Assembly (NCBI GenBank): GCA_016700375.1
Contig: CP065016.1
Coordinates: 450,001 to 482,000 of the forward strand
Source: Candidatus Saccharimonadota bacterium
Lineage (GTDB): Bacteria > Patescibacteriota > Saccharimonadia > Saccharimonadales > UBA4665
Direction: 5' to 3'
Length of the DNA: 32,000 nucleotides
The position numbers and the translations under genes were made by a program. Position 1 is the first letter of the stretch; each line of letters starts with the position of its first letter. The notes below the pieces were generated by a model, which saw nothing but the letters and a program-made list of their open reading frames with translations, did not search any database and was not told the DNA's origin. Shown here in pieces: positions 14,264-25,033 of this stretch.

Positions 14264-15136
14264 TTATTTTCGCTGCAAGACGCGAAGCTTAGCGCTTCGT
14301 GCTCGCGGATTAGAAACTGTTTCAGTGTCGTCGGCCACGACTGGATGTTTGGTCAACAAGCGGTAGTCTGCGTCGTAGCGGTCACCTGCCACATCGGCAA
14401 ATGCCTGCTTGACTATGCGGTCTTCAAGACTATGGAAGCTAATAACACCGAGTCTACCGCCTGGCTTCAATAGCTGAAACCACATAGGCAAACTGCGCTC
14501 GAGCTGTCCAAGCTCATCGTTTACCGCAATCCGTATCGCCTGAAAGCTTCGTGTTGCCGGGTGAACCTTACTTCCCCTCGGCATTACGTGCGCAATGGCT
14601 TCTGCTAGCGCAGTCGTCGTCGAAAACGGACGATTATTCACTATGGCGGCCGCAATCGTTCGAGCCCGCGGCTCCTCACCATACCGGCGAAGAATCCCCT
14701 CTAGCTCGACTTGGCTATACGTATTTACAACTGTTGCCGCTGTCAGCTCTGCGCGCTGGTCCATCCGCATATCAAGCGGACCGGTTGAGCGAAACGCAAA
14801 GCCCCGAGACGACGTGTCAAGGTGCAGCGACGATACGCCCAAATCCGCCAGTATCATATCGAAGCGTTCGCCCCCACTCTGTAGTGTGGCTGATGCCTCT
14901 TCGAAACTGGCATGCAATACTGTTGCACCCTGTCTCTCGAACGACGTGAGCGCGTTCACCGCAGTCTCGTCGCGATCGACCAGCGTCATCTGTGATGGCG
15001 CTTGGGTATGTTCCAGCACCGCTCCTGCGTGTCCGCCGTAGCCCGCCGTCAGGTCGAGGTAAGAGTTCCCTCGTTCTGGCGCAAGATACGTCAGCACCGC
15101 CCCGAGCAGTACGGGCTTGTGTATTGTTTGATGCAT
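14264..15136 (-). CDS. rsmH: 16S rRNA (cytosine1402-N4)-methyltransferase RsmH
   Basis: Motifs HKPVLL, DLTAGYGGHA, DLGVSS and ISFHSLEDRIVK. Start set at the ATG at 15136 (MHQTIHKPVLL). The ORF track extends to 15226 through an AT-rich low-complexity stretch. Confidence 0.85.
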   Translation of the reverse strand: MHQTIHKPVLLGAVLTYLAPERGNSYLDLTAGYGGHAGAVLEHTQAPSQMTLVDRDETAVNALTSFERQGATVLHASFEEASATLQSGGERFDMILADLGVSSLHLDTSSRGFAFRSTGPLDMRMDQRAELTAATVVNTYSQVELEGILRRYGEEPRARTIAAAIVNNRPFSTTTALAEAIAHVMPRGSKVHPATRSFQAIRIAVNDELGQLERSLPMWFQLLKPGGRLGVISFHSLEDRIVKQAFADVAGDRYDADYRLLTKHPVVADDTETVSNPRARSAKLRVLQRK

Positions 15137-15524
15137 AGTGCATGTCGCAACTTTGTTTTTATATTTGTATTTGTTTTGGTGATTTTTGTTTTTTTGGAGT
15201 AATTGGTTCCGGTTAGATTCGTACATCTATCCGTCCATCCGACTACCCGACTATTTATCACCTATTCAGCAGCCAACTTTTTGTTTTGTATCTAGTTTTT
15301 GTTTTTGTTGGTGTTCTTGGTCCGTATGTAAGGAAGCTTATAGTTTAGTAAGATTTCAAAAATCTTGTAATGCTTCCGACTTCCCAAGAACAAAGTGAGA
15401 GACTTATGTGTGAGGTGGAGTTTTGGGAGGTGTTTTATGGAAAGAACGAGGGCTTTTTTATGCAGTGGTGCCTTATGAATATCCACTGGTTGACTGCCGA
15501 ATAGGTGACACTAACGCTTCGCGG

Positions 15525-15650
15525 TAATGAGACACCCCTTCGGGGTTTCTCATCGTGCGGGGTCGCGGAATAAATCCGCCGACTCCGACTGCTCTTCCCC
15601 GTCCGTAGACGGTTCTTTGCATCGAAGGTTAGACTCATTCGTGTTTGCAT
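15525..15650 (+). repeat. Single copy related to the 113-bp tandem-repeat unit (hairpin-rich element)
   Basis: Same order of parts as the 1709-2064 unit. GC-rich hairpin GAGACACCCC-TTCG-GGGGTTTCTC. Second hairpin with apex CGGAATAAATCCG (unit: CGGAATGAATCCG). CT-rich tract. Box CTCATTCGTGT (unit: CTCGTTCGTGT). Confidence 0.45.
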
Positions 15651-15729
15651 GATTCATGATTCATTCTTCATGATTCTTGCGCTTTAGGTTGTTAAGGTTT
15701 TTTCAAATGAGCCAGGTCTCTATGCCTGC

Positions 15730-16089
15730 TCACGCTGCCAGAATGCGCCAATAATTTCCGACACTTACTGCGGTGACATCTTTTTTGATGCCGGCATAGT
15801 CAAGTAAGTGCTGCTCAAGCGTTATCCGCCCCTGTTTGCCATCGAGTGATTGCTCTACCTTGCCCATGCGGAATTGCACGTTCAGGTCAGCGATACGCTC
15901 GTCTAGGATGTCTCCGGCCAGCCGAGGCTCAACCATCGTATCCCAGACCCCTTTCGGGTACAGGTGCAGATACTGTCCAAATCCACGGGTAATGACCGCT
16001 CCACCGGCAAATGTTTCGCGAAGTTCGGTCGGTATGGTTAACCGCCGTTTATCGTCGAGTTTGCGCTGGAAGTAATCCACCTGTGTCAT
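15730..16089 (-). CDS. mraZ: Transcriptional regulator MraZ
   Basis: Two MraZ-type repeats, LDDKRRLTIPTELRE and LDGKQGRITLEQHLLDYAGI. First gene of the dcw cluster. Start set at the ATG at 16089; the ORF track extends to 16167. Confidence 0.8.
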   Translation of the reverse strand: MTQVDYFQRKLDDKRRLTIPTELRETFAGGAVITRGFGQYLHLYPKGVWDTMVEPRLAGDILDERIADLNVQFRMGKVEQSLDGKQGRITLEQHLLDYAGIKKDVTAVSVGNYWRILAA

Positions 16090-16284
16090 ATGATTATTTT
16101 TTAAGTGTGCGGTGAGTTTTTTGTTTTTCTCTTTCCTCCGGAGCTTCCCCTTCTCAGCAGTCTGCAATCAGATTATTGAGATGGGTGTCGCGTAGGAGGA
16201 TTTTTTGCCGAAAAGTTCTTCGAGAGAATTCTTTTGGCGACTTGAGAGGTAGTTCGCCGTTCTTTTACGCGGGTTACCTACTTT

Positions 16285-16325
16285 TACCCACTGCTAACAG
16301 TCTACTACCCACTGTCACCCACTAC
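16285..16325 (-). promoter_or_regulatory. Three GTGGG direct repeats upstream of mraZ (candidate MraZ operator)
   Basis: On the + strand, CCCAC at 16287-16291, 16308-16312 and 16318-16322 (spacing 21 and 10 bp) within TACCCACTG / TACCCACTG / TCACCCACTA. This reads as GTGGG on the mraZ strand. Confidence 0.5.
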
Positions 16326-16340
16326 AATACACATAATGCG

Positions 16341-16368
16341 AAAAAAGTGGTGCTTTTTACACCACTTC
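16341..16368 (-). terminator. Intrinsic terminator after ORF 16396-17037
   Basis: On the minus strand: AAGTGGTG-TAAAAAG-CACCACTT followed by TTTTTT. Confidence 0.65.
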
Positions 16369-16395
16369 CCCACAGTCTAGCTAACGGTCTTCTGT

Positions 16396-17037
16396 TTAAG
16401 TTCCAGCTATTTCAACACCCAACCGAAAGGGGTGACCATCCTTAGGAGGTTGCGAGGGGTCAACGAATACTCCTTCGTTCGAGACAACAGATGGAACACT
16501 CGCAGGATTATTATCATTGCCCAGCCATTCAGCATATGGTTTGCCATCCGGATCTGTTTGACCTATGACGCCCATCTTAATCCAAGCCTTCTCTCCATTA
16601 CTACCTGTAAACCCTAGCCACTGCGTTCCGTCGGGATCGTTATATTCAACCGGGTTTGCTATTGCTCTATTGACCCCAACAGCATCGCTAGGAACTTCAT
16701 TTCCATCTACATACTCCCCGGCGCCGACATCGTGCCTACCCTTTGTATCAGGGGCAGCATATGTCTTTACGCCAGGATGAAGTTGCAACGTACCGGACTT
16801 GTAAGAGTGCACCCGAGCCCCTGCAATCGCATTTTGTTCAGCAACACCCTGCCCAAGGCTAGTTTGGACATACTCAACAAACTTGGCAACAATCGGTGTC
16901 CCAATAATAGCTGTAGCAGCCAAAAAAGGGATACCTCTTCGAACAATCTTCTGACCACGCGTCAATTCTTTTGGATCTGCAGAGGCTGTTGGTCTTTTCA
17001 TGTGTCTTATTATATTCCCTTTATGCTTATTTGTCAA
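16396..17037 (-). CDS. Hypothetical membrane-anchored/secreted protein
   Basis: 213 aa with an N-terminal hydrophobic anchor (IPFLAATAIIGTPIV) and a Gly/Asp/Pro-rich remainder. No motif recognised. Confidence 0.5.
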   Translation of the reverse strand: MTNKHKGNIIRHMKRPTASADPKELTRGQKIVRRGIPFLAATAIIGTPIVAKFVEYVQTSLGQGVAEQNAIAGARVHSYKSGTLQLHPGVKTYAAPDTKGRHDVGAGEYVDGNEVPSDAVGVNRAIANPVEYNDPDGTQWLGFTGSNGEKAWIKMGVIGQTDPDGKPYAEWLGNDNNPASVPSVVSNEGVFVDPSQPPKDGHPFRLGVEIAGT

Positions 17038-17047
17038 TAGTGCAATA

Positions 17048-17302
17048 TTATGTTCCGCTTACGCGGGCGGGGCGAGCAAAGCTGAGTTGAGCGTGGCCTA
17101 TGTGGGTTTCTGCTTCACGCATATGGGTGTTGTGTAGCATTTCACCGCTGCCATGGGTATTTTGGCTATACACCACCGCTATCATGCCCTGACTCGTTTT
17201 CATTGCAGTTATTAGCAACGCGGCGATTGCAACATACAGCCCCACTTGAAAATGCAGCGAGTGCAAACGGTTCTTTAACTTTTTTTTAGTATTTTTTGAC
17301 AT
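17048..17302 (-). CDS. Small hypothetical membrane protein
   Basis: 84 aa: Lys-rich N-terminus, one TM segment (VGLYVAIAALLITAM), His-rich tail. Confidence 0.35.
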   Translation of the reverse strand: MSKNTKKKLKNRLHSLHFQVGLYVAIAALLITAMKTSQGMIAVVYSQNTHGSGEMLHNTHMREAETHIGHAQLSFARPARVSGT

Positions 17303-17375
17303 GATGTGTTTGTTATTACTGAACTAACCTATCATATCAAAACATAACCATTTTGTCAACATTATGTGACCCGAA

Positions 17376-18158
17376 TCACGAAACTACCCTCATCTGGTAG
17401 CCGAGTAGTACGCGCACGTAGTGCGTGAAGTAACCCTTAACACTTCTTGGGAACGAAGTGACCAAGAAGTGGTGTTCCTTGAGTTTGCCGAAGGTAGCTT
17501 CTATCTTTGGTCTCATGTGGAGCAAAAGCATTTGCCAGTCTGCGGCTAATTTCTTTCTTTGAGTATGATGCGGTGGTGCGATCACTATAGTTTTATGTTT
17601 CTTCCAGAGTCGCTTGCGCATGACGCTGCCACCGTAGTGACTATCGCCGACAAGTATCTTCGTGTGGTCATTCACGAGTTGTTCGATGTGCTGATTGTCG
17701 TGTTCATTAGCAGGAGTAAATACAACAGCTGCTAACCTGTTGTTGTAATCTATGGCCGCATGGAGCTTGAACCCGTAGTGCCACCCTTGCCAGTTCTTGC
17801 CAAAGTCGGCTACACCCTTGGCTACTTTGTGTCTGTTAGCACGTATGGGCTTACAGACGGGGAGCATTGTGCTGTCGACAAAGCGGAGCGGTGCTCCGCT
17901 TGCTAGAAGCGTCTGTAGCAACCAAACCATCTGTGGCAGTAATCGATGCACGTGAGCCACAAAGTTTTGGTACTTGGGCATATGAGGAAAACAATCCGAG
18001 TACTCTCTGCAAGCCCAGCCGTACAAACTCGAAAGGTTTTTGTGGGGTTCGGTGAGGCCATCCCATATGAGGATAGTGAGGAGTTCACTGTCTTTAAGGG
18101 CCGGATGCTGACCTCGTTTGTTTGGTTGGACGACTATGTCGTCTACCCAAACAAACAC
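17376..18158 (-). CDS. IS982-family-like DDE transposase (canonical ATG replaced by TAG; GTG start)
   Basis: 260 aa. Motifs DSTMLPVC, FGKNWQGWHYGFKLHAA, TPANEHD, GDSHYGG and IEATFGKLKE. Roughly 60 percent identical by eye to the 18234-19037 ORF. The codon aligned to the partner's ATG is TAG. Confidence 0.65.
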   Translation of the reverse strand: MFVWVDDIVVQPNKRGQHPALKDSELLTILIWDGLTEPHKNLSSLYGWACREYSDCFPHMPKYQNFVAHVHRLLPQMVWLLQTLLASGAPLRFVDSTMLPVCKPIRANRHKVAKGVADFGKNWQGWHYGFKLHAAIDYNNRLAAVVFTPANEHDNQHIEQLVNDHTKILVGDSHYGGSVMRKRLWKKHKTIVIAPPHHTQRKKLAADWQMLLLHMRPKIEATFGKLKEHHFLVTSFPRSVKGYFTHYVRVLLGYQMRVVS

Positions 18159-18233
18159 ATCTACGATATTATTCCTCTGTAAAGCACGCTATACTTTTCA
18201 CTGTTAATCGCTTAAACAAACAGGAGAAAAGAA

Positions 18234-19037
18234 ATGCGTGCTTTACAGAAACAATATATCGTAGATGTCTTCGTTTGGGTAGATGACCTGGTGACTCAGC
18301 CAGTCCGTCCCGGCCAGAAACCAATCCTGAAAGATAGTGAGCTACTCACCATTCTCATCTGGGATGGATTAACCGAGCCGCATAAAACCCTCAAAAGCCT
18401 GTACCGCTGGATTGAACGTGATTATGCTGACTGTTTCCCAAAACTCCCCAAGTACCAGAAGTTTGTTCGTCATTGCCATCGTTTGCTTCCAACACTGGTT
18501 TGGTTCTTGCAGTTAACCCTAGCGAATGATGCACCGCTCAGGTTCTGTGACAGCACGATGCTACCCGTATGTAAAACGGTGCGGGCTGACCGGCATAAGG
18601 TAGCCAAAGGTGTAGCTCAGTTTGGTAAGAACCACCAGGGTTGGTGGTATGGCTTTAAGCTGCACGCGGCCGTCAATCTCAAAGGGCAATTGGCAGCTCT
18701 TTGCTTTACGCCAGCCAATGAGTACGATGCCCAACATCTTGAGAAGCTCGTCAACCACGCGACAAAGGTCGTCGTCGGCGATAGCCACTACGCCGCCAGT
18801 CCGATGCGTAAGCGTCTCTGGAAGAAGTATGGCATCGTCGTCGTGGCAAACAACAGAAAACGAGCACTGATGACAGATTGGCAATACTTCCTGCAAACCT
18901 TGAGACAGAAGGTAGAGGCCAGCTTCGGCAAGCTCAAGGAGAACCACTGCTTAGTAAGCTCATTTCCAAGAAGCGTACAGGGCTACTTCGTTCACTACAT
19001 CCGAACACTCATTGGGTACCAGTTGGCTAATGGGTGA
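18234..19037 (+). CDS. IS982-family-like DDE transposase
   Basis: 267 aa. Motifs DSTMLPVC, FGKNHQGWWYGFKLHAA, TPANEYD, GDSHYAAS and VEASFGKLKE. Confidence 0.7.
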   Translation: MRALQKQYIVDVFVWVDDLVTQPVRPGQKPILKDSELLTILIWDGLTEPHKTLKSLYRWIERDYADCFPKLPKYQKFVRHCHRLLPTLVWFLQLTLANDAPLRFCDSTMLPVCKTVRADRHKVAKGVAQFGKNHQGWWYGFKLHAAVNLKGQLAALCFTPANEYDAQHLEKLVNHATKVVVGDSHYAASPMRKRLWKKYGIVVVANNRKRALMTDWQYFLQTLRQKVEASFGKLKENHCLVSSFPRSVQGYFVHYIRTLIGYQLANG

Positions 19038-19096
19038 TTGGGGTTATGTAAATACTACACTACCCCTCCCCGCGACTACCGGCCACTAAATATATC

Positions 19097-19311
19097 ATCG
19101 CGTCAGCGATACAGCTAGAAATGGCACTACGGAAGCTTCCCGGCATGACTGTTGTGACGCGCTACAACACATGCGAAATTGCGACGTGGCAGTGATTTCG
19201 CGTTGTAGTCTGTCACAACAGTCACCGAGAAGTTGGAGATGTGCCTGGTTTCTTTGCTTACTTTCTGTGGCAGCACAGAAAGTAAGTCGCCCTACCGGGC
19301 GAGACCGGCAT
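19097..19311 (+). ncRNA. Structured element X (paralogue of 21136-21396), family unrecognised
   Basis: Colinear with Y, with compensatory stem changes (see findings). Hairpins at 19097-19110, 19147-19223 (nested), 19257-19286 and 19295-19308. Strand was assigned from the GNRA-type loop GCAA in copy Y and one T-G pair, so it is tentative. Confidence 0.45.
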
Positions 19312-19496
19312 ATAGTTTGGTAGCAAAAGATCCTGGTCGGCTGGCAATCCGAGAGGTGCCGGTGCCTGAGTGAGAGTTTAGCGAGACTGCGAGGTAAGGT
19401 GCACGCACGAACGTCCGAGGAGCGCATGGATTCCCGCCGGAGTTTACCCTCAACTTGGGTTGTGGGGCGGGAATGACAGAGATAGTTGTAGAGTGA

Positions 19497-20147
19497 CTAC
19501 CGGATATCAAGCTCTATTGCCACGCCCTGCTGTAGCTTCAGCAGCGTGATTCCTTGCGCGGCTAGCACCTGGGCCATCCCCTCATACGTCCACTCCCGTG
19601 CCGTATCACTCAAAAACCAGTCATGGACCGGCAAAACGTACTTTGGCTTTAGTTCTAGGGCAAGTTCTACTGCGCGGCGAGTAGAGCCCCACGGCGCCAC
19701 CACTGGTAGCGCCAGCACCGGCATGGCTGCGGCAAAACTATGGCTGTCACCAGGGTGCGTGTACACACCCAGGAAATGTATGCCAATTTCTTCCGGCACT
19801 ACTGCGCCGAATGGACGTACTTCTTCGTGGGGAGATGCAAATGCGGCCGCCCCCGTAGGAACAATATCTGCTGCCTGGTGAATCCCTTGCTCGCGCAGCA
19901 GTTTGACTACATCAGTTGGTGCAGTAATACGCACATCTGGGAACTTTGCCGCTATTTGCTGCAGCTTGCTCGGGTCACAGTGGTCACCGTGTATATGAGA
20001 AACAAACACGTCATCAATCCACCCAATTGTGTCCAAATCTAGCTCGCTCCAGCCACCGGGGTCAAACAACGCCACCCTCGGCTTGCCCCGCTCCTCGGCT
20101 TCCACGAGCACACAACTATGCCCGTATTTCGTTATCTTCACTTGCAT
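19497..20147 (-). CDS. MBL-fold metallo-hydrolase
   Basis: 216 aa with the HxHxDH motif SHIHGDHCD and further His/Asp ligand positions. Confidence 0.75.
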   Translation of the reverse strand: MQVKITKYGHSCVLVEAEERGKPRVALFDPGGWSELDLDTIGWIDDVFVSHIHGDHCDPSKLQQIAAKFPDVRITAPTDVVKLLREQGIHQAADIVPTGAAAFASPHEEVRPFGAVVPEEIGIHFLGVYTHPGDSHSFAAAMPVLALPVVAPWGSTRRAVELALELKPKYVLPVHDWFLSDTAREWTYEGMAQVLAAQGITLLKLQQGVAIELDIR

Positions 20148-20153
20148 ACCCCC

Positions 20154-20181
20154 ATTTTACACCTCTTTCACCCCCTCTCAA
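20154..20181 (-). promoter_or_regulatory. Putative promoter giving a leaderless MBL mRNA
   Basis: On the minus strand: TTGAGA (20176-20181), 16-nt spacer, TAAAAT (20154-20159), then 6 nt to the ATG at 20147. Confidence 0.35.
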
Positions 20182-20274
20182 CTTACCGCCCCGTCCTGCC
20201 TTCCAGTTTTTCTTCACCATATCCCGAGCCTGCCGTCCACTTCACCGCCCACTACATTTACCCCTGATATTTTT

Positions 20275-20296
20275 AAACCGTACGGCCGTACGGTTT
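20275..20296. promoter_or_regulatory. 22-bp perfect palindrome AAACCGTACGGCCGTACGGTTT, copy 1
   Basis: Self-complementary over all 22 nt. Sits between the NYN stop and the MBL start. Followed on the + strand by ATTTT. Confidence 0.8.
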
Positions 20297-20365
20297 ATTT
20301 TGGCATGCGTGGATACCCAAATAGTGCGTCATTTAGCGTTTGGCGGTCATGGAGTTCGAGAAAGG

Positions 20366-21064
20366 CTATTTGTTTTTCGGTTTACGGTAGGTGCGGTAGG
20401 CAAGCTCGCCCCTGTGTTGGTCTAGACCTTCTATGTATTCGTCAAATTCTTGCAGCAAGGTAGAGAAACGGCGGTTGGGTGCCAGTACTTTTAGAAGTCT
20501 CTTTTGGTCGCGGAGATATTCTATAAGGCTAAAAAAGTCGCCGTCGCCGCTCACAATAACCGCTTTGTCGTAATGTGGCAACTCTTTCATGGCGTACAGC
20601 ACAAGGTCAGCATCTATGTTCCCTTTCACCTGGGGCTTCTCTGCTTCCTCTGTTTTGCCTAGGTCATTTTCACCCGGACGAGCATGTTTCGCTCTATCGT
20701 TGATGGCTGATGGTTGATTGTTTGCTGAACGTTGAACGTTGGTCGTTGGTCGTTGTTTTATGTCAACCGTGGGCTTTAGCACCACCAAAAACCCATGGGC
20801 ATACATCTGCTCGTACAGCGATTCGTTGTCGGGCAAATAGCCTATAAACATGTAGGCCTGTGTCACGTTGTATTCGCTGCGCAGCCACTCGCGAAACTTG
20901 TGCCAGTCCATCTTCCAACCAATCTTCTGCACCCCCAGGTTCAGGTTCTGGCTATCGATAAACGCGTAATTTCCCTTTGGCTTCGCTGGCGCAGACGGCT
21001 TTTTCTGTTGCCGCCCAATCCACCACGGTTTCCTCCCCTGCCCCTGTTTTTGATTTTCACTCAT
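20366..21064 (-). CDS. NYN/LabA-like domain protein (predicted RNase fold)
   Basis: NYAFIDSQNLNLG near the N-terminus and GNIDADLV...AVIVSGDGDFFSLIEYL near the C-terminus. A low-complexity insert lies between them. Start set at the ATG at 21064 (MSENQKQ); the ORF track extends to 21166. Confidence 0.7.
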   Translation of the reverse strand: MSENQKQGQGRKPWWIGRQQKKPSAPAKPKGNYAFIDSQNLNLGVQKIGWKMDWHKFREWLRSEYNVTQAYMFIGYLPDNESLYEQMYAHGFLVVLKPTVDIKQRPTTNVQRSANNQPSAINDRAKHARPGENDLGKTEEAEKPQVKGNIDADLVLYAMKELPHYDKAVIVSGDGDFFSLIEYLRDQKRLLKVLAPNRRFSTLLQEFDEYIEGLDQHRGELAYRTYRKPKNK

Positions 21065-21070
21065 GAGTTT

Positions 21071-21099
21071 ATTATACAGAGTTAAGAGATAAGAGTTAA
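21071..21099 (-). promoter_or_regulatory. Putative extended -10 promoter giving a leaderless NYN mRNA
   Basis: On the minus strand: TTAACT (21094-21099), 17-nt spacer ending in TG, TATAAT (21071-21076), then 6 nt to the ATG. It overlaps a 14-bp x2 direct repeat GAGTTAAGAGATAA (21079-21106). Confidence 0.4.
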
Positions 21100-21135
21100 G
21101 AGATAAGAACGCGGCCGTAGGCCGCTCAGAAAATA

Positions 21136-21396
21136 ATCGCGCAAGCGATACAGCCGAGACGGCCATGCGAAGGCTCTTGGCTCAGGTGTTGTCAGGCTCT
21201 ACAACTTCCGAAAGGCAAGGCGACTTGTTTGAAGAAGTAATCAATTGCCAGTGGCAATTGATTACTGACGAGTTGTCGCGTTGGCTGTAGAACTGACAAA
21301 GCCTGACCAAGATGCTGGAGTTCTGGCCTGGTTTCTTTTGCCTTCTTTCTTTGACAGCAAAGAAAGAAGGTCGCCTGCAGGCGCGAGAGCCTGCAT
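21136..21396 (+). ncRNA. Structured element Y (paralogue of 19097-19311), family unrecognised
   Basis: Hairpins at 21136-21149, 21182-21306 (nested, with an extra 13-bp hairpin around 21238-21266), 21341-21370 and 21376-21395. It abuts the helicase stop codon at 21397. Confidence 0.45.
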
Positions 21397-22908
21397 CTAA
21401 CTAGCTAGGATTTCCAGCAACTGAGCCCCATATTTTTCATGCTTCATCTTACCCATACCTTTTACTGCCAAGAGTGCCTGAGTGGTCTGTGGGCGGCGGG
21501 CGGCAAGCTCTTGGAGCGTGGTGTCGTGAAAAACCATGTAGGGCGGGATTTTTTCTTTGGCTGCCTGCCCCGTGCGCCATTTTTTGAGTGTGCTTAGTAG
21601 TGCTTCGTCGAGTGCCGATTCCACCTCATTTTTTTCGGCCTCTTCGGTAAAATCAGCTGTTTTTAACGCCATTTGTTCCGAAGCCTCCCGCAGCCACAGG
21701 TCAAACTCATGTACGACCGGGTGCATAGCAAGCGCCGTGTGGTTGATGCCCACCAGAAATATGCCGTCCATACTTCGCACGCGGCTCAGCGCCACGTAGC
21801 CCATACCGGGCGTAAAACTCCGGCTCAGGTCAATCTCGGCGGCATCCAGGCTCATGCCTTGGCTTTTATGGATGGTGATGGCCCACGCGAGCCGGAGCGG
21901 GAGCTGCGTCACCTCAGCTTTCACGCGGCCATCTTCCTCAAGCGACCAACTGTGCAGCTCTACTAGCACTTCGCGGCCGCCGGTCGTAACCACCAGAGGT
22001 GCGCCGTTCACAAAGTCTACCACCACGCCCCGGGTGCCATTTACAAATTTGCCTTTTTGGCTGTTGGCTACAAACATAACTTCGGCGCCTTTTTTTAGCT
22101 CCAACACCTCCGGTGCGAGCACACTTTTCATAAGCTGTTCGCGTTTGGCAGCCGCACCTTTTGCCTCCATAGTGTAACGGCGCGCGGGCTGCTGAATGGC
22201 CTGGAGGTGGCAATGATTTATGGTATCGACATCTACGTTGTGAGCATACAGTCGAGTCACCGCCTGAGCGTCTTGTATGGACCGATTCATACGTTCTCGA
22301 AGTGCTAGCTCGTGAAACTCATTTACGTCGCCGCGGCGCATGGCACCCAGCAAGTCCAAAAGCGTATCTCCGGCAGCTTGCCGGTGCTGTTCGTTCAGAT
22401 AGCATATAACGGGGTTGAGTTCTTGCCAGGTTACACTTTGGTGGGCAAAATCTGCTGTGTCGCTCCCCCGTGTTACCGGTGGTAGCTGAAACAAATCACC
22501 CACCAACACCACCTGCAGGCCGCCAAACGGGGCGTCACTGCGCCGAATCTTTTTTGCAACCGCGTTCACCATATCGAGCCGCCGACCGTGCAGCATTGAC
22601 ACTTCGTCTATAACGAGTATATCGGTGCTATTGTAGCGCTTCACCAAGTTCGATTTGGCGCTCAGGCGAGCGAGGTCGTGCTGGCTCAAGCTATCAAGTA
22701 TTCCTAGCCCAGACCAGCTGTGTATAGTGCTACCTCCTATGTGCGTCGCGGCAATCCCCGTACTGGCCGTAACGGCTACATTCTTGCCCCGCTGCTTGGC
22801 AAGACGCACAAACTGGTTCAAAACGTATGTCTTCCCCGCCCCAGGCGCACCCGTCAAAAAAACCGACTGGCCCTGCATCATTAGATTGAGTGCTTGTGAC
22901 TGTCTCAT
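21397..22908 (-). CDS. PIF1/RecD-type SF1 helicase with C-terminal HRDC-like domain
   Basis: 503 aa. Walker A GAPGAGKT, Walker B LVIDEVSM, LVGDLFQLPPV, and TIHKSQG...ALSR. The C-terminus KKWRTGQAAKEKIPPYMVFHDTTLQELAARRP is HRDC-like. AAGGAG SD lies 9 nt upstream. Confidence 0.8.
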   Translation of the reverse strand: MRQSQALNLMMQGQSVFLTGAPGAGKTYVLNQFVRLAKQRGKNVAVTASTGIAATHIGGSTIHSWSGLGILDSLSQHDLARLSAKSNLVKRYNSTDILVIDEVSMLHGRRLDMVNAVAKKIRRSDAPFGGLQVVLVGDLFQLPPVTRGSDTADFAHQSVTWQELNPVICYLNEQHRQAAGDTLLDLLGAMRRGDVNEFHELALRERMNRSIQDAQAVTRLYAHNVDVDTINHCHLQAIQQPARRYTMEAKGAAAKREQLMKSVLAPEVLELKKGAEVMFVANSQKGKFVNGTRGVVVDFVNGAPLVVTTGGREVLVELHSWSLEEDGRVKAEVTQLPLRLAWAITIHKSQGMSLDAAEIDLSRSFTPGMGYVALSRVRSMDGIFLVGINHTALAMHPVVHEFDLWLREASEQMALKTADFTEEAEKNEVESALDEALLSTLKKWRTGQAAKEKIPPYMVFHDTTLQELAARRPQTTQALLAVKGMGKMKHEKYGAQLLEILAS

Positions 22909-22978
22909 CGTACCTATCTCCTTACGCTATGCGTTTACATCGTGCTTCGTCGGCGTCACTGCCCCCGAAAGTACTTCT

Positions 22979-23006
22979 AGTATACCCTCCTGCCCCAGCC
23001 TTGCAA
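22979..23006 (-). promoter_or_regulatory. Putative helicase promoter
   Basis: On the minus strand: TTGCAA (23001-23006), 16-nt spacer, TATACT (22979-22984). Confidence 0.4.
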
Positions 23007-23086
23007 CTACAACAGAACTAATTTTCAACAAACCCACCCCCCTGATTTCCTTTCATACCTTAAACGAAGTATCAAACCGTCATTTT

Positions 23087-23108
23087 AAACCGTATGGCCG
23101 TACGGTTT
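23087..23108. promoter_or_regulatory. 22-bp palindrome, copy 2 (one mismatch)
   Basis: AAACCGTATGGCCGTACGGTTT. It overlaps the stop codon of the PaaX-like gene and lies upstream of the helicase promoter. Confidence 0.75.
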
Positions 23109-23688
23109 ATTTTCCCTCAGGGGCAAACACGGTTTTGAAACGGTCTATGAGTACGGCTTCGTGGTCTATATGGGCGGTGATTATGTATGTGACGAATCGG
23201 CTGATATCTAGCTTTTCGGCCACGAGCGTAATTTCACGGCGTGATTCAAACGGGTGCACCCAAACGCTTTGCTGCAAGTATCGGTAGCCCATCTGCTTTA
23301 TCTTGTCGGTAAATAGCCGCCGCGCCCGCTTTTGCTCTTCTGGTATATCGAAGAGTACGAGTCGCCACTGTCCATCCCACACCTCTGGGACGGGTATAGC
23401 CAGATTATCGTACTCAAGCCGCTTGAGGCGGAGTCTGCCGAGAGTTGTGATTTCGAGCCCATTCTCATAGTTCTCTGCGAGCAGTTTTTTACTGCGCATA
23501 TAGGCGAGCACTCGTGTTATCTCCCGCTCTTGCGCGCGCCTGTCCAGCGCGTCGAATGCTCGCTTCATAGGTCCTTCCAGACCAATGAGCGCATTTGGCG
23601 CAAGTACAAGCGCCGTTAGTGCCGTCCCAAAGACGGCCGTTCTGAGTACTGCGTCTACCAGCGCGCTGGTTTGTGCATTTTTTGCCAT
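23107..23688 (-). CDS. PaaX-like regulator (wHTH plus Cas2-like ferredoxin-fold domain)
   Basis: 193 aa. WDGQWRLVLFDIPEEQKRARRLFTDKIKQMGYRYLQQSVWVHPF matches the PaaX-family middle-domain pattern. A wHTH-like segment (ITRVLAYMRSKKLL) precedes it. The N-terminus is hydrophobic. Confidence 0.55.
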   Translation of the reverse strand: MAKNAQTSALVDAVLRTAVFGTALTALVLAPNALIGLEGPMKRAFDALDRRAQEREITRVLAYMRSKKLLAENYENGLEITTLGRLRLKRLEYDNLAIPVPEVWDGQWRLVLFDIPEEQKRARRLFTDKIKQMGYRYLQQSVWVHPFESRREITLVAEKLDISRFVTYIITAHIDHEAVLIDRFKTVFAPEGK

Positions 23689-23692
23689 ATTT

Positions 23693-23723
23693 AAATTGTA
23701 CGGCCGTACGGTTTATTTAACAA
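23693..23723 (-). promoter_or_regulatory. 22-bp palindrome copy 3 embedded in a promoter for the PaaX-like gene
   Basis: Palindrome variant AAATTGTACGGCCGTACGGTTT (23693-23714). On the minus strand: TTGTTA (23718-23723), 17-nt spacer, TACAAT (23695-23700), then 6 nt to the ATG at 23688. This is a leaderless configuration. Confidence 0.5.
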
Positions 23724-23786
23724 GAAGCTACGAAAGCGTTCTCGTGCCGGTTATGGATGTTAGGACTGTGAACGGCAGGTGGAGCG

Positions 23787-23999
23787 TTACTTACGGCGAC
23801 GTTTTTGGGCATTTTGACGAACCACTTCTCCGCCCGCCGCCTGAGCGAGGTTAACGGCGCCCAGAACGTTCGCTGCTACCGCCACAGCAGGCGCAAACGC
23901 TCCAACGGCAAAACAGGCTGCTGCGCCCAGCGCATTGACGTTTCGGTACCACCGAGCGGCTTTTTCGGTTTTTCCTTCTCTGGGCTGTGTTTCTGACAA
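23787..23999 (-). CDS. Small Ala-rich hydrophobic protein (TTG start)
   Basis: 70 aa. It begins 2 nt after the stop of the upstream gene, has one or two hydrophobic segments, and ends KRRRK. Confidence 0.3.
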   Translation of the reverse strand: MSETQPREGKTEKAARWYRNVNALGAAACFAVGAFAPAVAVAANVLGAVNLAQAAGGEVVRQNAQKRRRK

Positions 24000-24001
24000 A
24001 A

Positions 24002-25033
24002 CTACACCTCGGTTTCGTCGTCTTTGACTTTCAAGGGGCGTTTTTTAATGATTTCGTAGCGTTCGCCGGTTAGCGGCGATTCCCAGTAGTCTTCATTTAT
24101 GATGTTCACAAACGTGGTGAGGTCTTTTTCGTCCATGATGATGATTTTTCCTTGGTCATCTGGCATGAGCTCCAAATCCATGTCTTCGGCGTATTCGAGT
24201 GCCTTTTCTTGGCTGACCTTGCCCACTTCGAGCTTTTGCAGTTTTTGTATGAGCTGCTTTTTCCCTTTCAGCAGTGCATTCATGCCAACGCCCTCCGGGA
24301 AACTCAGCCCGTACACTTCCATAATCTCGCGCACCTTGGCTTCGGCTATACTGGCTTCTTTGGCATCGTAGCCAAACAGCGTTTTCAGCTTACTCTGGCT
24401 AAAAACATACAGGTCTTGGTCGAGCACCAGTAACTGCGGGTCTGTCGGAAGACGCAGCGCCGCCTCTGCGTCAAATGGGACAAACTTATCAGCGCGAAGC
24501 ATCCAGCCCTGCTTGCCCTTCATGACCTGAGATTTTGGCAAAACTTTTGCCAGGTAAAACGGCTTATCCATCTCTGGGTGCGAAACGCGTGCCAAGACGC
24601 CCTTCATATGGTTAATATCATGTTCTTCGTCTTTAAACAGTACAATTTCTCGCTCTTGTGTGTGCAACCAACCAAGTGTTTCGCGGAGTTTCTCTACGTT
24701 GAAAACTTGGGTGCGCTGCAGAACATTGCTTTCAGCCTCAGCATCTTCAAAGCCGCGAACTATGAGCCCTTTTTCGGCTCCCTCGAGTACAAAGTCGAGT
24801 AAATCATCTATAAATATTGGTTCGAGCTGTTTCTTCAGCCCATCAGCCATAGCCGTCCTATAAAGAACATAGTTCTTCGAAATAAAAAATAGCTCAATCT
24901 TGAGCTCGTCTTTGTATTGCACGAGGTTATTTGCCCAGGCGAATACATCGGTTTCTTGGTACGAATCGATTTCTTTTTGTCGCTGCGCCTCTACGGTGTT
25001 TTCATCCATAGCAAGCATTGTACCACTGAACAC
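24002..25033 (-). CDS. Hypothetical protein, possibly DUF4868 (KwaB-like); unverified
   Basis: 343-aa acidic soluble protein. Size and overall pattern fit my recollection of DUF4868 proteins. No diagnostic motif could be checked. Confidence 0.35.
   Translation of the reverse strand: MFSGTMLAMDENTVEAQRQKEIDSYQETDVFAWANNLVQYKDELKIELFFISKNYVLYRTAMADGLKKQLEPIFIDDLLDFVLEGAEKGLIVRGFEDAEAESNVLQRTQVFNVEKLRETLGWLHTQEREIVLFKDEEHDINHMKGVLARVSHPEMDKPFYLAKVLPKSQVMKGKQGWMLRADKFVPFDAEAALRLPTDPQLLVLDQDLYVFSQSKLKTLFGYDAKEASIAEAKVREIMEVYGLSFPEGVGMNALLKGKKQLIQKLQKLEVGKVSQEKALEYAEDMDLELMPDDQGKIIIMDEKDLTTFVNIINEDYWESPLTGERYEIIKKRPLKVKDDETEV

Follow-up and report, generated by a model that had tools for sequence, protein, structure and literature searches.

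The window analysed here is a 32,000-nt stretch of a Candidatus Saccharimonadota genome (contig CP065016.1, positions 450,001 to 482,000). It contains a helicase-NYN-MBL gene cluster with two elements on the + strand, X (19097-19311) and Y (21136-21396). The two elements are homologous, non-coding and very strongly folded. X has folding z values of -9.5 on the + strand and -8.3 on the - strand, and Y has -8.9 and -7.0. All sequences quoted for them in the initial annotation were found in their places. Y adjoins the stop codon of the helicase gene (21397-21399, - strand) at a distance of 1 nt and then overlaps it, and X lies after the MBL gene. X and Y were 78% identical over the 3' 95 nt (E 1e-12). 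The homology exceeded the limits given above. Upstream it takes in a further hairpin, P0, which has decayed in X, and beyond the 3' end of X it runs to about position 19482.

On the + strand, the element comprises from 5' to 3' P0, a second hairpin P1, a long rod whose sequence is free and whose pairing is kept, and a 3' cassette. P0 of Y is a GC hairpin (GCGGCC-GUA-GGCCGC, 21111-21125), and a hairpin of this kind precedes nearly all Saccharibacteria copies. Its stems are altered among copies, to AGCGGC/GCCGCU in L004a and by G-U pairs in L003 and L007. P1 was located by pattern match as ATCGC-GTCA-GCGAT in X (19097-19115) and ATCGC-GCAA-GCGAT in Y (21136-21154), followed in both by the conserved ACAGC. 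This shared start, which had already been pointed out, occurred in the window at X and Y only, with 0.1 occurrences expected. In other copies the P1 stem was swapped for ATCCCGCC/GGCGGGAT, ATCCACC/GGTGGAT or ATCCTGC/GCAGGAT.

The rod of X (19123-19245) is closed in the MFE fold by a GGCAC/GUGCC helix and has a GGA/GGA internal loop, inward of which lie the outer helix 19147-19158/19212-19223, the inner helix CUACAAC/GUUGUAG and an apical part of the short type. The rod of Y (21161-21328) was recovered by both the MFE fold and alifold. It is closed by GGCCA/UGGCC, contains a CC-GAAA-GG hairpin and carries an apical motif made of CUUGUUUGA, a 14-bp hairpin (21237-21267) and GAGUUG, in agreement with the extra hairpin previously ascribed to Y. 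The outer helices were also as described, paired perfectly in X and with one U-G pair and one G-A mismatch in Y (21182-21195/21293-21306). The inner CTACAAC/GTTGTAG helix had been reported for both elements and was exact in X, but Y has GCTGTAG and thus one A-C mismatch. The apical UGUYUGA...GAGUU of Y is common to the copies in Ralstonia, Variovorax and L010. A K-turn reading of this motif was rejected because its presumed C-stem is unpaired, and only the tandem G-A was retained.

In the 3' cassette, a U-rich strand is followed by a 13-bp polypyrimidine/polypurine hairpin, the linker GUCGCC and a GC hairpin whose loop reads GCGARA. In X these are UUUCUUU (19249-19255), the hairpin CUUACUUUCUGUG-GCAG-CACAGAAAGUAAG (19257-19286) and a 3' end made of the linker UCGCC, the hairpin CCGG-GCGAGA-CCGG and CAU (19287-19311). 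In Y they are UUUCUUUU (21332-21339), CCUUCUUUCUUUG-ACAG-CAAAGAAAGAAGG (21341-21370) and UCGCC, the hairpin UGCAGGC-GCGAGA-GCCUGCA and U (21371-21398), the last part overlapping the helicase stop codon. The 13-bp hairpins of X and Y differ at three positions, each compensated on the partner strand, and both 3' hairpins have the GCGAGA loop on the stems first reported (CCGG/CCGG in X, TGCAGGC/GCCTGCA in Y).

Local alignments to L004a, L025, L026 and L027 located the remnant of an older copy behind X (19316-19482, + strand). In L004a, which occupies the corresponding position in a related MAG, the aligned part was the 3' cassette and tail. The remnant retains the end of the 5' arm, the loop, the 3' arm AAAAGAUCCUGG, UCGGC, a hairpin with a CCGAGA loop and a tail ending in GGCGGG-AAUGACAG. 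The same arrangement recurs in L030. In the L030 locus the IS is absent and the same X is accompanied by an intact P0; P0 in the window has therefore decayed by point changes, and truncation of X by IS982 was rejected. A decayed helicase C-terminus downstream of X was rejected as well, the spacer being the remnant of another copy of the element.

Coding potential was rejected on two grounds. Neither the 110-aa ORF across X nor one of 118 aa across the L028 copy had a Pfam match, and a coding sequence could not accommodate the indels and compensatory changes. ORFs placed on these elements by gene callers are spurious. No sigma-70-type promoter was found on the + strand upstream of X or Y, and a scan found no + strand terminator at their 3' ends; in L006, UUUUGGUUGU follows the last hairpin. 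Shine-Dalgarno or anti-SD mimicry was dropped, GGAGG being present only in L010 and there without a following start codon. A literature search on sequence strings of the element returned nothing relevant.

Covariation was measured in an alignment of 16 Saccharibacteria copies with 39 consensus pairs. Two-sided changes were found in 30 of the 39 pairs. Paired cells amounted to 93.5%, against 72.3% in shuffled alignments (0/500). The covariation score reached 0.569; shuffles gave 0.206 and slid controls 0.05-0.15. Helices 1-5, which form the rod, were 89-99% paired with two-sided change in 15/22 pairs. Helix 6, the 13-bp hairpin, was 93% paired with two-sided change in 10/12 pairs, and in helix 7, the 3' GC hairpin, all five pairs (5/5) had changed on both sides. 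The strong covariation supports the proposal that X and Y are true paralogs under selection on a fold, and it speaks against a recent duplication or a decaying duplicated flank as the source of their similarity. The + strand, which had been thought to fold better, was indeed the more stable strand in 18 of 20 copies tested, by 4-19 kcal/mol, and in all ten Saccharibacteria copies among them (10/10).

X and Y had been described as two paralogous elements. They are not an isolated pair but belong to a dispersed repeat family whose members occur in four bacterial classes from at least three phyla. A pattern scan gave six Saccharibacteria loci, and nhmmer together with MBL synteny gave at least ten more. 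About 18 additional copies are present in Saccharimonadales genomes, as single units only, with three to four copies per genome sampled and up to three per 10-kb locus (L027). The length of the unit is 215-360 nt. Locations were conserved across diverged Saccharimonadales, and the copies of one genome were 60-80% alike, which shows that they do not stem from recent bursts. Decayed copies and replacement of one copy by another were also seen. Viral contigs, a phage collection and E. coli genomes contained no copies.

Outside Saccharimonadales, the 3' cassette is conserved in Beta- and Gammaproteobacteria and in a fusobacterium, namely in Ralstonia, Burkholderia, Paraburkholderia, Variovorax, Caballeronia, Pasteurella, Pseudoalteromonas and Ilyobacter. 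The 13-bp hairpin stretch of X alone gave blastn matches of 83-87% identity in Ralstonia, Variovorax and Caballeronia. The body preceding the cassette varies. In B. cenocepacia it is a short hairpin alone, and in Pseudoalteromonas (L033) a TwoAYGGAY RNA (261-374) lies immediately upstream. The rod is wholly free to vary in sequence even within one genome, as seen in the left and right copies of GMI1000. The patchy occurrence across phyla of a near-identical cassette suggests horizontal spread.

The stretch CCTGGTTTCTTT occurs at only two sites, 19244-19255 in X and 21327-21338 in Y. The initial annotation had called CCUGGUUUCUUU conserved and unpaired; it is conserved, but part of it pairs with the rod's 5' side, and CCTGGTTTCTTT is unlikely to be unpaired. 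UUUCUUU and the 5' arm of the 13-bp hairpin form a mirror repeat, and in several lineages UUUCUUU has changed in step with both arms. It looks like the third strand of a triplex with a U•A-U / C+•G-C signature. The corresponding third strand of Y, UUUCUUUU, was proposed by mirror-repeat comparison. Parallel matches between third strand and purine arm, with U opposite A-U and C opposite G-C, gave 4-8 triples in 21 of 22 variants. Such a match was present wherever the cassette was recognisable. Asymmetric variants kept the mirror symmetry and not the direct symmetry. Examples, given as third strand, 5' arm and purine arm, are UUCUUUU, UUUUCUU and AAGAAAA in Vario_L; UUUCUUUU, UUUUCUUU and AAAGAAAA in Burkholderia, Paraburkholderia and Pasteurella; and UUUCUC, CUCUUU and AAAGAG in L027b and L028. 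The C and the G-C pair were lost jointly in L004a, L027c, L027a and L025el. This support amounts to three or four independent sequence events. Two observations count against a triplex: the third strand is poorly kept in L022X, and a linker of 0-2 nt must span a basal helix of 5 bp. The mirror symmetry is equally compatible with a purine-motif triplex of the opposite strand or with H-DNA. Watson-Crick pairing between the upstream U-strand and the purine arm, as in a direct-repeat switch, is disfavoured by the asymmetric variants, which are mirror repeats.

X and Y are old copies of a previously uncatalogued element. The reading we prefer, with a confidence that falls a little short of even, is that they are diverged copies of a dispersed, strand-specific structured element with an RNA 3' cassette. 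Copies of the family are gained, lost and replaced and have multiplied in Paraburkholderia. The element would act as RNA from the + strand, alone or within longer transcripts. UUUCUUU may occupy the hairpin's major groove, oriented parallel with the purine arm, in about seven U•A-U / C+•G-C triples. The clamped hairpin and the GC hairpin would then make a rigid, nuclease-resistant 3' end or a barrier to processing, and the cassette might stabilise the RNA body upstream of it in the manner of REP, BOX or ENE elements. Such a role would account for the attachment of the cassette to different bodies in different taxa. It is also possible, if doubtful, that the cassette is a natural bacterial RNA triplex of about seven consecutive triples, a portable 3'-end protector like ENE/MALAT1 carried on repeats that cross phyla, possibly by way of an RNA or single-stranded intermediate that needs the structure.

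The copy numbers of near-identical sites in Paraburkholderia, together with head-to-head dimers, point to mobile DNA, in which the fold might be used for transposition and not as RNA. At least 40 cassette sites per replicon were found in seven replicons, the best of them 100% identical, and head-to-head dimers, which in the proteobacteria are inverted repeats as wholes, occur in Ralstonia, Variovorax, L010, Caballeronia, Paraburkholderia and Ilyobacter. The presence of the element varies among Ralstonia strains, with an empty site in T95, a deletion from hairpin to hairpin in UW386 and an insertion within the cob operon. The decayed and replaced copies in Saccharibacteria and the patchy occurrence of a near-identical cassette across phyla fit the same picture. 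The elements may accordingly be non-autonomous mobile DNA of the REP, REPIN or MITE kind with the RNA fold as a by-product, a reading that we consider possible but hold to be rather improbable. In this case single-stranded or supercoiled DNA would adopt the hairpins together with a T•A-T / C+•G-C triplex or H-DNA, and a transposase or recombinase provided in trans would recognise these structures. However, X and Y have no terminal inverted repeats of the MITE type, their ends being unrelated, and the 5' GTAG head of REP/REPIN, which are imperfect palindromes of 20-40 nt, was absent at both ends of both elements. No clear target-site duplication was seen when the filled and empty Ralstonia sites were compared. 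For the P. caribensis dimer, no clean example of an empty site turned up. No RAYT gene was found in any locus read, no transposase was consistently near the element, and the phage collection gave no matches. Nor did the elements resemble integron attC sites, with no GTTRRRY cores of the R''/L''...L'/R' architecture at the ends, no integrase in the window and no tie of the element to each ORF. The positions kept across diverged Saccharimonadales and the divergence of copies within a genome also argue against mobility. So do GNRA-like loops and the asymmetry of about 31 G-U to 8 A-C in conserved helices, both of which favour one strand. That strand in the window is the presumed leading-strand template, whereas IS200/REP-type systems use the lagging-strand template.

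The genes flanking the element are unrelated between loci and showed no association with a partner protein (purH/glgB, SHMT/purD, lactate permease, MBL and helicase). This would suit a set of independent trans-acting sRNA paralogs with their own promoters, acting by protein sequestering or base pairing like CsrB/RsmZ, 6S and the TwoAYGGAY candidates, with the cassette as a terminator or stability module. The strong covariation, the conserved GGA/GGA internal loop, the purine-rich loops and the TwoAYGGAY RNA, a proposed CsrA sponge, in front of one cassette are in keeping with such sRNAs. We regard them as unlikely, since no promoter was found, X and Y had no score against TwoAYGGAY, and it is unusual for sRNA genes to come in 40 or more copies, as dimers or in decayed form. 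The freely varying rod within GMI1000 speaks against a conserved base-pairing seed.

A function on the gene (-) strand, in which the elements serve the helicase and MBL genes as structured 3' UTRs or terminators, would fit the window itself. Y begins 1 nt past the helicase stop codon, X follows the MBL gene, and every copy in the helicase-NYN-MBL cluster is antisense to the genes and occupies the position of a gene-strand terminator. The - strand also folds strongly. Weak terminator-like calls were obtained on it at the reverse complements of P0 and P1 (e.g. GCGGCCUACGGCCGC and GUUCUUAUCU), directly followed by the NYN promoter; the elements would end at P1/P0 just ahead of the next promoter. 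This is nevertheless very unlikely. The - strand was less stable in all Saccharibacteria copies tested, the G-U pairs turn into A-C mismatches on it, and a 260-nt multi-helix element with covarying stems far exceeds the needs of a terminator. Sense-oriented copies exist between purH and glgB (L005), after purD (L002) and after the lactate permease gene (L007), most proteobacterial single copies are sense-oriented too, and the relatives L023, L024 and L029 have the same gene cluster without any element. The remnant behind X shows that duplication and decay occur at this site. Chance similarity or unselected decay of duplicated flank is nevertheless refuted for X and Y by homologs in more than 15 loci of several phyla and by two-sided changes far above the shuffled and slid controls.

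If the preferred reading is correct, a conserved non-coding element has gone almost unnoticed across Saccharibacteria (CPR), Beta- and Gammaproteobacteria and Fusobacteria. A triplex-type third strand would be unusual for bacteria; if real, it would represent a long major-groove RNA triple helix beyond riboswitches and introns and a model for how triplexes protect or shape RNA 3' ends. The repeat would also be tractable for the study of spread and domestication, being high-copy in Paraburkholderia and old and low-copy in Saccharibacteria. For annotation, it matters that spurious ORFs get placed on these elements.

The initial annotation had assigned X and Y to no RNA family. This held for X and Y themselves: the whole window gave no match to Rfam 15 at gathering scores, and at E<=10 the region 18900-21600 gave only chance miRNA, OxyS and lncRNA matches far below threshold. 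It did not hold for distant relatives. When the window and 13 related loci were searched at gathering and permissive scores, the only families to appear were RF02421, matched by the 3' half of the Burkholderia cassette, and TwoAYGGAY, matched by the body of one Pseudoalteromonas copy. RF02421 (Bp1_684; Bp1_Cand684_SIPHT) overlaps the cassette on the same strand, its model spanning the 3' purine arm AGAAAAGUGACC, the GC hairpin and the tail. With membership set at a CM score of at least 44 bits, B. cenocepacia (L020, 92.9 bits) and Caballeronia (L021, 51.3 bits) scored above the gathering score, and lower matches in L021 (38.8), L035 (39.6) and L034 (35.6 bits) fell below it. X and Y had no match to it at E<=10 and share only about the first 30 model positions. 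The model is a SIPHT-predicted fragment that starts in mid-hairpin and includes neither the third strand nor the 5' arm nor the rod, and its tail (GCUAAUAGACCG...) is specific to Burkholderiaceae. This truncated Burkholderia fragment is the only trace of the family cassette in Rfam. Bp1_684 was RT-PCR positive in B. pseudomallei, which is not strand-specific evidence for the cassette part, and a trans role was proposed for it from its unrelated flanking genes, a feature it shares with the element (Khoo et al. 2012, PMC3521395). TwoAYGGAY (RF01731) resembles the element in its outer helix enclosing two hairpins and its tandem G-A pairs. The Pseudoalteromonas match reached 51.3 bits (gathering score 43) and links TwoAYGGAY to the family at one locus; X and Y had no match to the model and none of its two terminal AYGGAY loops.

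REP/BIME, REPIN, ERIC, BOX and Correia repeats are thought to affect mRNA stability or termination when transcribed. The X/Y family resembles them in being multi-copy, extragenic and strain-variable, with hairpins, inverted pairs and locations within operons, and like BOX elements it is modular. It differs in its much greater length (220-360 nt), its covarying multi-helix architecture, its triplex-type mirror repeat and the conservation of its cassette across phyla, whereas REP/BOX-type families are confined to a genus or family. Triplexes listed for bacteria in one review are those of riboswitches and group II introns only. The U•A-U triplexes of H-type pseudoknots (telomerase RNA, SAM-II, preQ1-II) are comparable to the cassette, as is the ENE of PAN, MALAT1 and transposable-element RNAs. 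Like the ENE, the cassette would have U•A-U runs with one C+•G-C at the 3' end of a non-coding RNA, in which two U-rich strands surround one A-rich strand. The ENE clamps a 3' A-tract with a U-rich internal loop, whereas the third strand of the cassette lies immediately 5' of a simple hairpin.

X (19097-19311) and Y (21136-21396), both on the + strand, are old members of a non-coding element family that is new and widespread; its members are dispersed, structured and strand-asymmetric. The sequence features that the initial annotation listed for them were all found in place except for one detail. The CTACAAC/GTTGTAG inner helix claimed for both stood in X, and Y instead reads CUACAAC/GCUGUAG with one A-C mismatch. 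The two elements aligned over the 3' 95 nt (78% identity, E 1e-12) and also over the 5' hairpin, and they were the sole occurrences of two anchor motifs in the 32-kb window. Folding of the + strand gave -109.6 kcal/mol for X (z -9.5 vs shuffled sequence) and -128.1 kcal/mol for Y (z -8.9); the - strand folds gave z -8.3 and -7.0, respectively. As the initial annotation had supposed, neither fitted a known RNA family: no Rfam family was matched at gathering scores and nothing meaningful was found at E ≤10. The rod contains a 3x3 internal loop (19131-19133 with 19234-19236 in X; 21169-21171 with 21316-21318 in Y). This loop is GGA opposite GGA in most copies and GAA/GGA in Y, and it may form tandem G-A pairs or a protein-binding site.

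RNAalifold analysis of 16 aligned Saccharibacteria copies yielded 39 pairs in 7 helices, 30 of which showed double-sided change. Paired cells reached 93.5% compared with 72.3% in shuffles (0/500), a figure biased in favour of the structure because one alignment supplied both. This shared origin does not account for the double-sided changes (133 cells vs 41 in shuffles) and the slid controls (covariation score 0.569, compared with 0.206 for shuffles and 0.05-0.15 for slid partners). The alignment was poor at the small hairpin P1 and at the rod apex; the P1 stem swaps between copies from ATCGC/GCGAT to ATCCCGCC/GGCGGGAT and ATCCACC/GGTGGAT. The selection on a fold proposed from X and Y alone is thus upheld by the double-sided changes and by the far lower shuffled and slid controls. 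The suggested preference for the + strand was also borne out: the + strand was the more stable in 18 of 20 copies, including 10/10 Saccharibacteria copies tested, the conserved helices contained more G-U than A-C pairs (about 31 to 8), and the + strand loops are purine-rich (GCAA, GCAG, GCGAGA). A sequence scan found no promoter-like site on the + strand upstream of X or Y, which counts against a separate gene on that strand.

When species-representative genomes were scanned for the pattern, six true loci emerged, every one of them in Saccharimonadales. Further copies were obtained both by a profile search with these six loci and, separately, from loci fetched via MBL protein homologs. About 18 copies were read besides X and Y, a tally of loci read and not a genome-wide count, in which several copies are orthologs and not independent events. 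One MAG carried four copies (L003, L004a, L004b, L005), and three lay in the single 10-kb locus L027. Copies occupied the helicase-NYN, NYN-MBL and MBL-downstream gaps as well as unrelated sites (purH/glgB, purD/SHMT, 3' of a lactate permease gene), with orientation relative to neighbouring genes mixed between loci. Decayed remnants were found in the helicase-NYN gaps of L022 and L025, and no copy at all in the related loci L023, L024 and L029.

The host of X and Y is a Saccharimonadales (TM7) genome. On the - strand the order is KwaB-like, PaaX_M, PIF1/HRDC helicase (21397-22908), Y, NYN, MBL (19497-20147), X, two IS982-type genes, mraZ and mraW, and GC skew suggests that the genes are co-oriented with replication. 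This order is kept in many relatives. The cluster of KwaB-like, PaaX_M (Cas2-like), PIF1-HRDC helicase, NYN and MBL genes adjoins mraZ-mraW across Saccharimonadales (L022, L023, L025-L030; window 14264-25033). For NYN the probable start codon is ATG 21064; a TTAACT-17-TATAAT promoter site (window 21064-21099) ends 7 nt upstream of this ATG, which suggests a leaderless mRNA. The NYN ORF contains a low-complexity insert (20700-20760) similar to short repeats that flank elements elsewhere. The two IS982-type transposase genes (17376-19037) are head-to-head with a mutual identity of just 67.5%. The closest relative, L030, has the same X with the upstream hairpin P0 intact and lacks the IS982 pair; the pair is therefore a lineage-specific insertion beside X. 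Behind X, positions 19316-19482 hold the 3' two-thirds of another cassette with its tail, orthologous to L004a, the copy at the same position in a related MAG, so X stands before the stump of an older copy.

ORFs overlying element copies are probably spurious: 110 aa over X (19095-19427, - strand; no Pfam match), and 43 aa (L025 3580-3711) and 118 aa (L028 4519-4875; no Pfam match), both called by gene callers. Other repeats were also observed. A 113-nt unit occurs in three exact tandem copies at 1709-2064; a fourth copy is matched in part at 2149-2173. The 31-nt A/T-flanked palindrome TTTTAAACCGTACGGCCGTACGGTTTATTTT is intergenic at 20271-20301, 23083-23113 and 23689-23719 and resembles a bidirectional-terminator family. 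Many element copies are adjoined by short, low-complexity tandem repeats whose composition is strand-biased (upstream of Y at 21080-21110; L006 1280-1345; L007 5797-5835; L008 1355-1430; L017).

Relatives were found in other phyla. One GC-rich contig from a metagenome scan, L010, carried a head-to-head pair of copies. Blastn of X against plasmids and chromids, a collection of secondary replicons only, matched Ralstonia, Variovorax and Caballeronia with 83-87% identity over the hairpin cassette, and other queries added Burkholderia, Paraburkholderia, Chitinibacter, Ilyobacter (Fusobacteria), Pasteurella, Pseudoalteromonas and Aeromonas. The cassette is common to these relatives, joined in Betaproteobacteria by an apical UGUYUGA-hairpin-GAGUU atop the rod. 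The rod sequence is free; the two GMI1000 copies carry wholly different, perfectly paired 22-bp segments. In Proteobacteria a C/A-rich tail lies 3' of the cassette and could be a putative Rho loading site. No copies were found in the phage collection, viral contigs or E. coli.

The UUUCUUU strand of the cassette, taken as conserved and unpaired in the initial annotation, fits a Hoogsteen third strand parallel to the purine arm of the 13-bp hairpin (U with A, C with G) in 21 of 22 sequence variants. The hairpin follows it after 0-2 nt, or after 4 nt in two copies, and the match covers 4-8 positions adjoining the loop. Because UUUCUUU mirrors itself, only asymmetric variants can discriminate between the mirror-repeat reading (triplex) and the direct-repeat reading (alternative hairpin). 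The clear asymmetric variants were mirror repeats in every case. Third strand, 5' arm and purine arm read UUCUUUU / UUUUCUU / AAGAAAA in the Variovorax left copy, UUUCUUUU / UUUUCUUU / AAAGAAAA in Burkholderia, Paraburkholderia and Pasteurella, and UUUCUC / CUCUUU / AAAGAG in L027b and L028. By our simple count, and with few events, the chance of three such matches is about 1 in 800. The third-strand C and the G-C pair were lost together in L004a, L027c, L027a and L025el; the weakest case, L022X, kept just UCUU. Separating the triples from the linker is a basal helix of constant length (5 bp), which suggests a geometric constraint and which the short linker would have to cross. The mirror symmetry would be equally compatible with H-DNA or with a purine-motif triplex formed by the opposite strand.

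We infer that the elements most likely act at the RNA level, where the cassette would be a triplex-clamped hairpin forming a stable 3' end or a processing barrier. The strongest competing reading, a mobile element working at the DNA level, draws real support from copy number, dimers and strain polymorphism. Seven Paraburkholderia replicons each carried a 57-nt core at 40 or more sites, the best ones identical, and four full cassettes were seen in 190 kb of Paraburkholderia. The Ralstonia cobaltochelatase/cbiE junction is an empty site in strain T95, holds a dimer in GMI1000, and in FJAT15249 (L017) shows an adjacent 11-nt repeat, GGTGTTGGGTT, expanded about 20-fold. UW386 has a deletion there between two palindromic hairpins: inverted cassettes recombined within these hairpins (L018 640-720) and about 430 nt between them were lost, so the cassette hairpin is a recombination hot spot. 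RNA-level action and DNA mobility are not mutually exclusive, since REP, ERIC, BOX and Correia elements combine mobility with a role in transcripts. A pure terminator of the gene strand is unlikely: P0 and P1, read as reverse complements, were called weak terminators in a - strand scan and are followed by the NYN promoter, but the elements are strand-asymmetric and sense-oriented copies exist. Chance similarity and decaying duplicated flank, the latter raised in the initial annotation, are excluded.

Among known systems, one review places bacterial RNA triplexes in riboswitches and group II introns only. Rfam RF02421 (Bp1_684) matches B. cenocepacia and Caballeronia on the same strand, starting at the hairpin's purine arm and extending past it; this model captures a truncated cassette, and neither X nor Y is matched by it. 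Bp1_684 was a SIPHT prediction detected by RT-PCR, and a trans role was suggested since its neighbours are unrelated (Khoo et al., PMC3521395). In Pseudoalteromonas sp. NC201 (L033), a TwoAYGGAY RNA (RF01731, 51.3 bits; 261-374), a family for which CsrA binding has been proposed, is directly followed by the cassette (401-470). This arrangement, together with bodies that differ by taxon, suggests that the cassette is a modular, portable 3' module.
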